Shown: one piece after another, positions 56,501-64,000 of the stretch
Layout: the number at the start of each line of letters is the position of its first letter
How positions within the stretch are numbered: the stretch's first letter is position 1
From: an uncultured Thermoplasmatales archaeon
GTDB taxonomy: Archaea; Thermoplasmatota; E2; DHVEG-1
Length of the DNA: 64,000 bases
Direction of reading: 5' to 3'
Assembly: GCA_964481275.1 (NCBI GenBank)
Contig: CAYZTD010000001.1
Location: 50,989 to 114,988 of the forward strand
Position numbers: made by a program

Positions 56501-59500
56501 AGTGTTATGAATGAGGGTGTTAGAGCTGCTTCTAATGTTAAATGGCAGGTTTCTGTTAAAGGTGGAGTTTTTGATAGAGTTAATGTATCTAAGATTGGCA
56601 TTGTTGATATTTTGAATTGCAGTGAGAGTGTGGATGTTTCTACTTTTGGTCTTTTTGATTTTAAATCCAGAGTTTTTGGTTTTGGTAAGATTGCTGTAGA
56701 AGTATTAGTAAGTGATGTTAATGGTTTGCCAGTTGGTTTTGATTCTGTTGAGGGTCGTGTTTTTGGTCCTATTGTGTGGCTTATTTTGGATTAAATAAAA
56801 AAATTATCATTATTTTATCTTGATATAACCGAAGTTTCATGTCAAAATTTTTATTCTTCTCAAATAAGTAACCTAAATATTTTAATAATAACAAAATATC
56901 TTAATATTGAGGTTGGTGAGTAACAAATATGATCAGACATAATAAAAAAAATACTGATTTTGATAAAAAACATTCTGAAATTGCCGACTTCATTGATAAT
57001 CTATCAATAGATGATTTAAAATCTAGTAAAAAGAAGGATTTAATAAAAAAAGATATGAATTCTGTTGATGAAGATAAAAATATTGAAGGAAGAATTTATA
57101 ATTTTTCATCTGTAGATAAAAAACCTAGGAAAAAAGGAAAATATTACTTGATTGCGGCTCTTTTAATAATTGCAATTATTGTGTCTGTTTCTTATTTTCT
57201 TTTTGTAAATACTGATATAGATTCTGATGGAGATGGTATACCTGATTCTGAGGATTTATTTCCTAATAAAGATGCTAAAGTACGTGTTTCCATTGAAGAT
57301 TTTGTATATCTAGATGCTAAGAATTTAACAAGCTCAAAAAAAATATATTACTATATTCTTGAGTTTTTCAATTTTAATTGGGATAACCTTACATATGATG
57401 GAATTGGTGATTCAAAATCAAATTATTTTTCCTCAAAAACATATAATAGTTTTACTTTTGAAGATGCAATTATTAATGTTTCAGATGATGTTAGGTATCA
57501 TACTATTTCAATCCAATTCTATTATTATGATACTGAAAAACGGAATCATACTGGTTTAGATATAGATGATGATTGGACTTGGGCTCTTACCTTAGAATAT
57601 GACATTGTATCTGGGACCTGGAAAGGAGATGATAGTACTGGTATCTCAGATGGTAGTAAAGATAATATTCCTGGAGAAGAGGATTGTTATATTGAATATT
57701 CTTTAGAGACTATTTAGGATAATATTTCAAATTGACTTAATTACGCTAAATTTATAAATAGTATAAATTACAAAGTATAAACAAAGGATATCACTAAGAG
57801 GGGTGAAAAGAATAAGATATCTTAGAAAGAAAAATGAAGCTGTTTCTGCAGTTATTGGAACTATTCTAATCATTTCTATTGTTATGAGTTCTATTAGTTT
57901 TGTTATGATTTTTTATATACCTCAAATGGAGAGAATGAAGGCGTTTTCTCAATATGAAGCAGTAAATACACAATTTGGTGTATTAGAAAATTCTCTTTCT
58001 AATCTGATAAGTAATGGTGATGGTTCTACTGAAAAAAATAATGTTGGTATCGAATCCGGCTCTTTTAGCATGAATAATATAGATGAGGATAGACTTGTTG
58101 TTATGTATGCTTGTGATGGTTATGATTTTAATGTTACTGGTCTTAATGATGGAGATAAAAATTTTATTTTAGATATGATTGATGGACAGGTTAGCCAAAT
58201 AAAGGTCCGTTCTTCTGAGACAACATCAAATTATAGTAAATTTGTGCCATCAGCAGTACCTCCTCCCTCTGCTGATTCTCCTTATGAAGTTAAAATTTAT
58301 GATTTTAATGATCCTGATAATAAAGCATATAACACAGATCAAGGAACATCAAATCCTTTAGATCCACATACAGATATAGATAGTTTTAGTATATATCAGG
58401 CTGATGAATATAACAACATCACATCTGATGATTCTAATCGTAATCTGTGGGAGGGATATACTACACCCCCTCCTTATAACAAATATGCTAATCTATTGTA
58501 TTTTTTTAAGGTAGATGAATCTCCTTCATCTATAAATAGAATTAATTTCTCTTGGACTGGTTATGATACTTTAACTAACGATGGTTATTTTGGTTTGTAT
58601 ATTTATAACAATGATTCCTCTTCCTGGCAAGAGTTGAGCAAAACGTCAAATAGTTTTACTGAAGAAACATTATCTTTTAATCTCACAAGTAACGATCTAG
58701 GTGAAGATGATTTCAGTTCCTTTATTAATGATAGTGGATATATGATTTTTGCAGCATCCGGTGCTAAAGGTCCGGGTGAACCTACAAATAATCCTCCTAA
58801 TGAACCTAGTAATCCTTCTCCTAGTGATGGTGCTGTTGATCAGCGTATTGATGTCGGTCTTAGTTGGGATGGAGGTGATCCTGATGGTGATGATGTTACT
58901 TATGATATATATTTTGGAACTAGGGAACCTCTGCCTTTGTTGGAGTCAGGTCATCCAGAAAATAGATATAGGTTCGAGAGGGATTTAAGTTATGGTACGC
59001 TCTATTATTGGCAGATTGTCGCTGAAGATAGTTATGGTGAGACTACTTCTGGTTCTGTATGGCGTTTTATTACAAGTAACGCTCCAAACAGACCTCCTAA
59101 TGAACCTAGTAATCCTTCTCCTAGTGATGGTGCTGTTGATCAGCGTATTGATGTCGGTCTTAGTTGGGATGGAGGTGATCCTGATGGTGATGATGTTACT
59201 TATGATATATATTTTGGAACTAGGGAACCTCTGCCTTTGTTGGAGTCAGGTCATCCAGAAAATAGATATAGGTTCGAGAGGGATTTAAGTTATGGTACGC
59301 TCTATTATTGGCAGATTGTCGCTGAAGATAGTTATGGTGAGACTACTTCTGGTTCTGTATGGTGTTTTTCTACAATTAGAGAGCTCGTAGAAAGTATAGA
59401 TTTTTGCATGACTCTTGATTGTTGTTGTTTTCCTGCGGGTACTAAGATTACTATGGCTAATGGTTCATATAAAAATATTGAAGATGTAAAGGTTGGGGAT

Positions 59501-62500: not shown

Positions 62501-64000
62501 AGAAACTTGTAGTGATACGTGTTCTGGTTCTACTTGTGAGGGTACTTGTCCAGATGATTATACTTGTTTTAATCCTACTTGTTTTGGTGATACTTGTACA
62601 GATACTTGTAGGGATACTTGTGGTGATTTAACTTGTCTTGATACTTGTACAAATACTTGTTTTACTTGTAACGGTTGTATTGATGAAACCCTTCAAGATA
62701 CTTGCCCGGCAACACAATGTGCATGTTGTTTTCCTGAGGGTACTAAGATTAGTATGGCTGATGGTTCTTTAAAAAATATTGAGAATATTGTTGTTGGTGA
62801 TAGGGTTTTATCTTTTGATGTTGAAAATAATGTTTTTGTTGAGTCTGTTGTTTCTGATTTTATTGTTAAGGTTCGTGAGGGTGTTTATAGTATTAATGAT
62901 GGTATTATTATGCCTACTGATGATCATCCTTTTTATGTGAAGAAATCTGATGGTATTACTGCTTGGGCTTCTATTAATCCTGATAAATCTAAGGTTATGT
63001 ATAATGATAGGGATGCTGTCAGTTTGGAGGTTGGTGATAGTTTGTTTACTGGTGATAGTTGGGTTGATATTGAGTCTATTGTTTTTTGTCCAGGTGAACT
63101 TGTTACTTATACTTTTGCGGTTGATAGTGTTTTTCATGATTACTTTGCTAACGGTATTCTAGTTAGTAACTGCATTGGCTGTACAAGTGGTGAGACCTGT
63201 ATGACTTGTAGCGGTAATACTTGTGACTCTACTTGTACAGCTACTTGTAGTAATACTTGTGATTGCCCTAGTCCTAATTGTTGTTTTCCTGAGGGTACTA
63301 AGATTAGTATGGCTGATGGTTCTTTAAAAAATATTGAGAATATTGTTGTTGGTGATAGGGTTTTATCTTTTGATGTTGAAAATAATGTTTTTGTTGAGTC
63401 TGTTGTTTCTGATTTTATTGTTAAGGTTCGTGAGGGTGTTTATAGTATTAATGATGGTATTATTATGCCTACTGATGATCATCCTTTTTATGTGAAGAAA
63501 TCTGATGGTATTACTGCTTGGGCTTCTATTAATCCTGATAAATCTAAGGTTATGTATAATGATAGGGATGCTGTCAGTTTGGAGGTTGGTGATAGTTTGT
63601 TTACTGGTGATAGTTGGGTTGATATTGAGTCTATTGTTTTTTGTCCAGGTGAACTTGTTACTTATACTTTTGCGGTTGATAGTGTTTTTCATGATTACTT
63701 TGCTAACGGTATTCTAGTTAGTAATGGAGCTGCTGAAGGTTGTATAGTAACAGGCGGTGGTGAAGGTGGCCCTTCCCTGGCGACTGCTCCCTTGGATGAT
63801 TATGCTAAAGATCTTCTTTATGATACTGATTGGGGTATTTCTTTTTCCAATGGTTTTTATGGTGCTGCTCCTTCATATGATAATAATTGTTTGGATTCAC
63901 CTATATATAACTATAAAACTGTCTTAAGTATAAGTGGAAATATTAACCAACCTGATATATCCTTTTTAGGGGGGTCCAATTTTGATGATGTGTTAGAACA

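Follow-up and report, generated by a model that had tools for sequence, protein, structure and literature searches.

Archaeal pilin-like proteins with bacterial intein-like Hint domains in a split core

What do intein-like domains do inside proteins that begin like type IV pilins? The question is raised by two adjacent paralogous genes, P1 and P2, in a 64,000-nucleotide stretch of contig CAYZTD010000001.1 (assembly GCA_964481275.1) from an uncultured Thermoplasmatales archaeon. This whole stretch is called the window, and coordinates refer to it. P1 (57803..61096, + strand, GTG start) encodes a 1097-aa DUF7289-type pilin-like protein with one Hint domain. P2 (61164..64000, + strand) encodes its paralog with two Hints and is cut by the window end, so that 945 of its 1259 aa lie inside. 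The two are recorded as proteins of one NCBI contig (P0001 and P0121). An initial annotation, made from the sequence alone, had placed both open reading frames at these positions with more than 900 aa each, and the full lengths agree with it. With moderate confidence, P1 and P2 are interpreted here as modular, minor-pilin-like components of an archaeal type IV filament (Tad- or type IV pilus-like) system that are cut by their own Hints of the bacterial intein-like (BIL) type.

Both proteins start with a short basic leader, A-V-S and a hydrophobic stretch of about 24 residues (MKRIRYLRKKNE-AVSAVIGTILIISIVMSS.. in P1, MKGMQYKYIFKENK-AVSTVVGVLLVLSLVITS.. in P2). A basic leader, Gly or Ala at -1 and at least 20 hydrophobic residues, as in class III signals, are found in P1 (RKKNEA/VSAVIGTILIISIVMSSISFVMIF) and in P2 (FKENKA/VSTVVGVLLVLSLVITSVSTILLF); slashes mark junctions here and below. 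The P1 leader (57803..57841, +; aa 1–13, MKRIRYLRKKNEA) ends at a predicted prepilin-peptidase site, A/VS. It leads into a long N-terminal alpha-helix (57836..58015, +; aa 12–71), as in type IV pilin alpha1. The helix has predicted local distance difference test (pLDDT) scores of 80–97 in both AlphaFold2 (AF2) models and is followed by beta strands at aa 76–138. Leader, helix and strands belong to the P1 head (57803..58246, +; aa 1–148), and the P2 head (61164..61697, +; aa 1–178) opens with the leader MKGMQYKYIFKENKA/VS. Across 133 family representatives, the leader has a median of 10 aa with about 3 K/R, followed by A (84%) or G (12%), V (78%) and S/T (97%). The fuller family pattern runs A/G - V - S/T - P/E - V - I/V, then W-G-x-P-Y-I after about 24 hydrophobic residues. 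Searched against PDB sequences, the family profile matched 9MYG (E 9e-4), 8GI2 (Natrinema PilA2, 1.2e-3) and 8FJ5 (3.5e-3), and the matches to solved archaeal pilins are confined to the N-terminal ~30 residues (profile positions 9–38).

The class III, pilin-like N-terminus proposed in the initial annotation thus stands on the family motif, the helix, the solved-pilin matches and the gene context described below, but not on the Pilin_N model, which stayed under its cutoff. The FlaFind-type check that it had suggested divided the pair: P2 fits the strict motif (K-A-V-S) and P1 does not (E-A-V-S). All of the computational checks suggested there gave favorable or neutral outcomes.

The pilin-like part does not end at the head. 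Pfam DUF7289 (PF23960) scores 32.9 bits on P1 (cutoff 27) and 26.4 bits, just under the cutoff, on P2; the Pfam match spans profile positions 2–88 only. A core hidden Markov model (HMM) of 336 positions was built locally from 45 contiguous family members of ~340 aa. On P1 it aligns aa 6–148 to positions 3–148 (E 1e-43) and aa 855–1095 to positions 101–333 (E 8e-35). On P2 it aligns aa 9–178 to positions 4–178 (E 3e-40), with the second half at E 7e-35. The halves are separated by 707 aa in P1 and 845 aa in P2, and eight relatives show the same two-half match. Because the core HMM matches in two halves, P1 and P2 are read as a DUF7289-type core with an insert of 700–850 aa. The predicted architecture is a pilin-like core split by an insert, not a pilin head plus a tail. 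The head is the N-terminal half of this core, and the C-part (60365..61087, +; aa 855–1095 in P1) is the C-terminal half.

Structure models fit this arrangement. P1 aa 1–345 modelled alone are confident in the helix only. The pLDDT of the head beta-region goes from 48–87 alone to 86–97 in the full-length P1 model, which includes the C-part. The rise fits a packing of head and C-part together and is not proof of it. P1 aa 951–1050 (60650–60950) are 98–100% identical to full-length P2 (P0121, beyond the window), against 24–52% over most of the rest. Because of this difference, gene conversion or concerted evolution of the C-part is inferred.

The insert carries the Hints. The P1 Hint (59426..59884, +; aa 542–694) reads CFPAGTKI..TNEHPF..VHN/K, with Cys1, TNEH as block B, a His-Asn end and Lys at +1. 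P2 Hint a (62727..63170, +; aa 522–669) reads CFPEGTKI..TDDHPF..VSN/C, with Cys1, TDDH, a Ser-Asn end and Cys at +1. P2 Hint b (63282..63725, +; aa 707–854) is a DNA copy of Hint a that ends in Ser-Asn with Gly at +1 (VSN/G). The units are 148–153 aa long. In searches with Hint-family HMMs, P2 is above cutoff (PT-HINT, 56.5 bits, the best Hint-family Pfam match) and P1 is borderline. The best solved sequence relatives are BIL domains, 2LWY (E 2.3e-6) followed by 6TMM/6Y75. The Hint model is confident (pLDDT 85–96), and its nearest structures are BIL domains, ahead of inteins and Hedgehog. The HMM matches and the model bear out the Hint fold, for which both checks had been suggested. Of the two types named earlier, BIL and Hedgehog, BIL domains are nearest, and no Hedgehog-like recognition region follows the Hint.

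Among 44 complete family Hints, Cys1 is present in 41, TxxH in 43 and a terminal Asn in 39 (HN in 32, SN in 7). At +1, only 9 of the 44 have C, S or T; other residues there include K (8), D (6), A (5), G (4) and P (3). The +1 residue is Ala in the L001 ortholog and in P0122. Canonical splicing is therefore unlikely, because +1 is non-nucleophilic in P1, in P2 Hint b and in 35 of the 44 family Hints. The initial annotation had reached the same view from +1 residues of Lys, Cys and Gly, at least for Lys and Gly, and it is strengthened by the rarity of a +1 nucleophile in a family that keeps the catalytic set. Its proposal of single-sided autoproteolysis is not retained; cleavage probably occurs at both Hint junctions instead. 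Of the features of a class 1 intein, Cys1, TxxH and a C-terminal Asn are present, and within the pair a +1 nucleophile is found only in P2 Hint a. Inteins typically occupy conserved sites in conserved proteins, most of them informational, and many carry a homing endonuclease, whereas the Hint hosts are variable surface proteins with low-confidence linkers as flanks.

Three other classifications were considered and rejected. A canonical intein is disfavored by the mostly non-nucleophilic +1, by units (148–153 aa) too short for an endonuclease domain and by variable flanks. The AXH domain (Ataxin-1/HBP1) is above its Pfam cutoff on P1 aa 543–651, where it is the top Pfam match, and on P2 aa 523–627, and is precomputed for many family Hints. 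It appears to be a cross-match: Ataxin-1 chains align only query residues 11–56 (E 0.08), and structure comparison leads to BILs and inteins. Such a cross-match, to the N-terminal half of the Hint, could mislead automatic annotation. A polymorphic toxin does not agree with the conserved C-terminus, no toxin or immunity genes were seen, and PADLOC gave only a homing-endonuclease cross-match.

The Hints sit between linkers that are modelled with low confidence and are probably flexible. In P1, the pre-Hint linker (59375..59425, +) ends in Cys-Cys at -2 and -1, with pLDDT <50 at aa 525–539. The post-Hint linker (59885..60142, +; aa 695–780) has pLDDT 29–42 and contains the motif PLDD..NCLDSPLYxYKT. 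The corresponding P2 linker (63726..64000, +; PLDD..NCLDSPIYNYKT) continues past the window. The motif, PLDD...NCLDSP(L/I)Y(T/N)YKT, is conserved in P2, P0002, P0122, P0123 and P0124, yet no fold is predicted for it. This segment may serve for docking or strand complementation after cleavage. The initial annotation had described homologous host sequence on both sides of the Hint. This holds downstream but not immediately upstream, where P1 has an fn3-like pair and P2 a Cys-rich tract.

The design recurs across the family. Searching with a profile of 349 N-terminal columns gave 385 representatives at E < 1e-3, many of them only ~340 aa long. Hints were found in 45 of 133 head-bearing search representatives. 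In a set of 136 head-bearing sequences, 46 have a contiguous core without a Hint and 64 are split at the same HMM position (~141–157) by inserts of 30–1900 aa; a Hint lies inside the insert in 38 of the 64. In 35 Hint carriers, the Hint starts at residue 111–156, directly after the head (xDT/CFLAGTKV ... VLVHN/x). In the P1/P2 clade and a few others, it comes last or late among the elements ahead of the C-terminal unit, and in P0137 and P0200 it ends 6–8 residues before a YxEDY strand. The Hint-in-pilin design is thus widespread in the family, with about a third of members as carriers. The named relatives are all uncultured Thermoplasmata or Thermoplasmatales archaea. A protein search without the fn3 repeats and the Hint gave only four proteins, and one for taxonomic spread gave only Thermoplasmata proteins without a name or labelled hypothetical. 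A scan of a genome collection gave two short Thermoplasmata contigs, and one of metagenomes gave only contigs that were short or distant.

Tandem Hint arrays were also seen in the secreted proteins P0043, P0095, P0112, P0038 and P0059, some of which have ordinary Sec-type signals. P0043 has at least eight Hint units with spacers of 1–4 residues, often THN/T(C)C. Hints within one array are of different sequence types.

The occupied site is kept while its Hints are exchanged. P2 Hints a and b are 100% identical over 446 nt (62724–63169 = 63279–63724). The identical block runs from the -1 Cys codon to inside the terminal Asn codon, and the flanking linkers are unrelated. A simple 555-bp tandem duplication was rejected, since only the Hint unit is identical; the block looks like Hint-precise copying or gene conversion. 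The syntenic L001 ortholog of P2 has one Hint, not two. The P1 Hint is 40% identical to that of P2 and 59–63% identical to those of the Sec-signal proteins P0038 and P0059 and of P0090 (DUF7287-like). In the L002 paralogs, Hints P0123a, P0123b and P0124a are 89–94% identical, with heads at 25%. A Hint is still at the site in P0122 from L003, at 38–39% identity. The initial annotation was right that the Hints of both paralogs occupy the same position: the place is shared, and the Hint types differ. Hint units are thus swapped or homogenized between genes, whereas the site itself stays occupied. Selection for Hint presence there is suggested by the retention in P0122, the differing P1 and P2 types and a second pilin family.

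Gene context supports the pilin interpretation. The P1/P2 pair is kept as a pair in L001 and L002. Small pilin-like genes follow P1/P2 relatives in L002, L003 and L004. On three independent contigs (L006, L007 and L008), the homologues P0127, P0129 and P0233 lie directly after a PilB3-type T2SSE ATPase and two T2SSF genes. Next come a DUF7266/DUF2341 pilin-like gene, two small genes with weak DUF7288/DUF7262 similarity and a last large gene. This last gene encodes a second, DUF7287-like pilin type (NKA/VAVPLESIIALG, DRRG/VASPLEF). Members of this second family have an N-terminus with Glu and one to four Hints ~140 residues in. Hint-interrupted DUF7287-like genes lie at L005 7707–12320, L007 12844–16236 and L008 9351–11138, and the proteins P0054, P0072, P0083 and P0090 are of this kind.

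A mechanism can be proposed from these parts. The core would consist of a class III-like signal, the alpha1 helix, a small beta head and the C-part, with adhesin-like modules and one or two Hints in the insert. The protein would be inserted into the membrane, and the leader would be cut by a prepilin peptidase after Ala13 in P1 or Ala15 in P2. As the catalytic residues suggest, the Hint would fold outside the cell, Cys1 would form a thioester with the residue before it, and the terminal Asn would cyclize. One or both Hint junctions would then be cleaved rather than spliced, as reported for BIL domains. Cleavage is the expected main outcome because +1 is Lys, Gly or Ala. BIL-type Hints give mostly N- and C-cleaved products when the transesterification nucleophile is absent (PMC7664689; PMC7765530), and BIL domains without a +1 nucleophile "produce predominantly cleaved products" (PMC7664689). 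A conserved catalytic set with a variable +1 is the BIL-type signature, from which cuts after Cys541 and Asn694 would be expected in P1. The N-fragment (head and cargo, P1 aa 14–541) and the C-fragment (P1 aa 695–1097) would then be expected to stay together non-covalently, because head and C-part are halves of one core; this is the weakest step. The net effect would be to convert a doubly tethered cargo loop into a cargo arm with a single remaining tether to a pilin-like anchor.

Several observations weigh against this account. Pilin_N (PF07790) scores 17.1 bits on P1 and 15.3 bits on P2, under its cutoff of 25.2, with only profile positions 1–26 matched. The strict FlaFind motif [KR][GA][ALIFQMVED][ILMVTAS], with K/R at -2, fits only 20 of 133 family N-termini. 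No prepilin peptidase, ATPase or platform gene was found in the 64-kb window, and T2SSE and T2SSF are not adjacent to the pair in the window, L001 or L002. Sec-signal proteins of this lineage (P0038, P0059 and P0095) carry Hints as well, so the link between Hint and pilin is not exclusive. Hints of some relatives lack Cys1 (P0129) or the terminal Asn. The P2 Hints end in Ser-Asn rather than His-Asn, and Hint a, with Cys at +1, could splice. The pLDDT rise of the head could stem from a different alignment.

The Pilin_N scores, the sparse strict motif and the pilus machinery not found in the window would all suit an uncleaved signal-anchor or ordinary Sec signal on surface proteins unrelated to a pilus. 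This is very improbable. It is disfavored because A-V-S/T is conserved far beyond the need of a plain anchor; in addition, the family profile matches solved archaeal pilins, and homologues on three independent contigs have an operon place after T2SSE and two T2SSF, among four other pilin-like genes. The Hint could instead act as a releasing peptidase, with the pilin-like head as no more than an export or anchoring handle and the distal part freed as a soluble protein (the C-fragment in P1 and P2, cargo plus C-part in relatives with the Hint first). HINT is a common autoproteolytic releasing module before exported cargo in polymorphic toxins (PMC3482391), and PT-HINT is the best Hint-family match in P2. 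The linkers around the Hint are probably flexible, and in 35 representatives the Hint lies at the head boundary, an ideal place for cutting cargo off an anchor. What would be freed in P1 and P2, however, ends in the conserved C-part (98–100% identical between them at aa 951–1050) and not in a variable effector, and in contiguous members head and C-part belong to a single ~340-aa protein. Toxin or immunity genes were not seen, genes downstream of relatives are pilin-like, and a single-membrane archaeon needs no carrier for protein secretion. Release is therefore considered unlikely, although it keeps some weight. Splicing is somewhat more doubtful. The flanks would be rejoined, canonically at the +1 Cys of P2 Hint a or by direct aminolysis, as described for certain A-type BIL domains, and the mature chain would be without Hints, which would be intein-like passengers or a maturation timer. 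Cys1, TxxH and the terminal Asn are all present, and C, S or T follows in 9 of 44 units, P2 Hint a among them. The nearest structure, 2LWY, is a BIL domain, which Aranko et al. (2013) reportedly described as ligating without nucleophilic side chains. A single mutation makes BILs efficient splicers, but unmodified BILs yield mainly cleaved products (PMC7664689). Splicing is further opposed by the 35 of 44 non-nucleophilic +1 residues, which include Pro, Asp and Lys, and by poorly conserved, low-confidence flanks with no conserved extein site. Some last Hints of tandem arrays cannot splice at all, because their terminal Asn is absent.

Two further explanations concern the fate of the thioester and the origin of the units. 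The Hints may be selfish or neutral cassettes, spread by gene conversion among secreted-protein genes and tolerated with no pilin role. The exchange pattern speaks for this: the 100% identical copy in P2 is bounded almost exactly by the Hint unit, and the L001 ortholog has one Hint rather than two. The Hints of P0123a, P0123b and P0124a are far closer to each other (89–94%) than the heads (25%), and the P1 Hint is closer to those of unrelated hosts (59–63%) than to that of P2 (40%). Hints also occur in many unrelated secreted proteins, with at least eight units in some arrays. The units are nevertheless too short, at 148–153 aa, for a homing endonuclease domain. Their position in the core is non-random, where the insert starts or ends, and this holds for two unrelated pilin families; the catalytic residues are kept over deep divergence. 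A purely selfish origin is accordingly improbable, and Hint activity would be required in any case, because host tolerance needs efficient self-removal. Slightly less probable again is resolution of the Hint thioester by an outside nucleophile, which would join the N-fragment covalently to another molecule. Hedgehog cholesterylation is the established precedent for such a transfer. The acceptor could be a neighboring pilin, an S-layer or envelope component, or a protein, lipid, substrate or colonized surface. The last Hint of several tandem arrays keeps Cys1 and has lost Asn, a Hedgehog-like pattern confined to the N-side, and the P1/P2 clade has Cys-rich tracts and a -1 Cys immediately before the Hint. 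The Hint is followed, however, by a low-confidence linker and not by a Hedgehog-like acceptor-binding region. The terminal Asn, unneeded for this chemistry, is kept in 39 of 44 units, and the acceptor is hypothetical.

A self-cut, modular minor-pilin-like protein, the interpretation favored here, has partial parallels among known systems. A-type BIL domains (Amitai et al. 2003; Dassa et al. 2004) are likewise mini-Hints of ~150 aa without an endonuclease domain. They share Cys1, block-B TxxH, a C-terminal (His/Ser)-Asn and a usually non-nucleophilic +1, a pattern that P1 (HN/K) fits. Like the Hints of P1 and P2, they lie in variable parts of secreted or surface proteins, vary in copy number and are exchanged from gene to gene. 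The nearest A-type structures are 2LWY from Clostridium thermocellum and 6TMM/6Y75, BIL2 of the Tetrahymena BUBL1 locus. Apart from the ciliate case, BILs have been described from bacteria, whereas the host of P1 and P2 is archaeal. The P1 and P2 host proteins are also type IV pilin-like, with the Hint at a defined split-core junction, and the P2 units end in Ser-Asn.

Bindosome proteins and modular pilins share the proposed anchor, a pilin-like N-terminus of the class III type. Where a large functional ectodomain sits on such an N-terminus, type IV filament machinery is thought to be used for display, as is proposed for P1 and P2. In those proteins the functional domain follows the N-terminus and no self-cleaving module is reported, whereas the cargo of P1 and P2 is a core insert with Hints. 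PilB and PilC of Streptococcus sanguinis are reportedly modular minor pilins, type IV or at the tip, with grafted vWA or lectin modules. Bacterial modular pilins and P1/P2-type proteins both combine a pilin module with adhesion-type modules and are encoded with other minor pilins beside assembly genes. The bacterial graft is C-terminal and self-cleavage is not known there; the P1/P2 core is of the DUF7289 type. PT-HINT toxins (PMC3482391) share Hint autoproteolysis in a large exported multidomain protein, and PT-HINT is the top model for P2, but P1 and P2 have no variable C-terminal toxin or immunity gene, and their C-terminus is a conserved core half. P1 and P2 differ from Hedgehog/Hog proteins in that the Hint is internal, usually retains its terminal Asn and is followed by no region for sterol or adduct recognition. 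GAIN/GPS and SEA are autoproteolytic modules of adhesion proteins whose fragments remain associated after cleavage. Their likeness to P1 and P2 would lie in the proposed outcome only, two chains held non-covalently; folds and chemistry are unrelated.

Open-access papers and bioRxiv preprints were searched for Hint, BIL or intein-like domains together with pilins or class III signals, and no paper was found. This agrees with the initial annotation, which knew of no described system of a pilin signal with Hints. No paper mentions of DUF7289 were found in the same sources, and it goes unmentioned in a 2026 survey covering the type IV filament systems of archaea. Both halves of the design, self-cleaving Hints of the BIL type and archaeal pilin-like proteins with class III signals, are known; no description of their systematic combination was found in the papers searched. 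Hints at the core/cargo junction in about a third of a pilin-like family, and in a second pilin family, point to a functional rule rather than an accident. BIL-type Hints are thereby extended to archaea, in a defined structural setting for their long-unclear biological role. If the proposal is true, very large cargo would be placed on type IV filaments by insertion into a loop, one arm of which is then cut. If thioester transfer were true, it would be a sortase-independent, self-catalyzed way of cross-linking or anchoring type IV filament components.

The P1 insert contains further modules. The first, module 2 (58283..58777, +; aa ~161–325), is a beta-sandwich labelled AF_1625_C (PF27237) in precomputed annotations. 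AF_1625_C-like modules are internal, and sometimes present in many copies, in the giant surface proteins P0128, P0139 and P0151. The fn3-like pair (58790..59377, +; aa ~330–525) is a 300-bp tandem duplicate (58782–59378), with 98% matches by Tandem Repeats Finder and 97% identity in a repeat search. AF2 models it as beta-sandwiches, and its matches are to PF25788/fn3-type proteins. In the ortholog P0002 the two fn3 domains have clearly diverged, so homogenization in P1 is recent. After the post-Hint linker come a TLYENY strand and a Y_Y_Y Ig-like domain (60143..60442, +; aa 781–880), with a Pfam Y_Y_Y score of 34 bits and a match to 3V9F; this unit is also found in split relatives without Hints.

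In P2, a Cys-rich tract, (x-x-T-C)n, lies directly upstream of Hint a (62502..62726, +; aa 447–521), and a Cys-rich linker separates the two Hints (63171..63281, +; aa 670–706). Cys recurs at every fourth residue, ~20 Cys, directly upstream of each P2 Hint. The tract of the L001 ortholog (~13700–13925) is longer and more regular, (GDTCEGTCS)n. The residue at -1 of the Hint is Cys across the P1/P2 clade. The P2 tract could bind metal, form disulfides or act as a thiol relay to the thioester.

The pair is preceded by a conserved gene (56929..57717, +) for a 262-aa membrane protein with a Lys-rich N-terminus, one transmembrane helix, a DSDGDGIPDSEDLFPN motif and a beta-rich ectodomain. No Pfam family was found for it, and its DSDGDGIPDSEDLFPN motif looks like a calcium-binding motif. 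The protein precedes the pair in the window, L001 and L002, and is 44% identical to its L002 counterpart.

The window is chromosomal DNA from an archaeon of low GC content (about 31%) and contains gyrA/gyrB, Mre11/Rad50-type genes, OapB/OapC and riboflavin genes. A run of genes for secreted proteases (papain C1, subtilase S8, caspase C14 and gingipain C25) spans 35.8 to 57 kb. Secreted protease genes are unusually dense at 35814–56794 and 39–12130, with four genes of the papain C1 type, five C25, one S8 and one C14; PKD domains are present in most of them. This density suggests a protein-degrading lifestyle. One of the five C25 (gingipain-like) peptidase genes (53513–56794) has a single in-frame TAG at 54884–54886 (GHGSPTE-stop-CGPKLY). 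The TAG could mark a nonsense mutation, a pseudogene or a sequencing error; amber read-through is less likely. The syntenic ortholog in L001 has Trp (TGG) at this site and encodes an intact 1092-aa protein.

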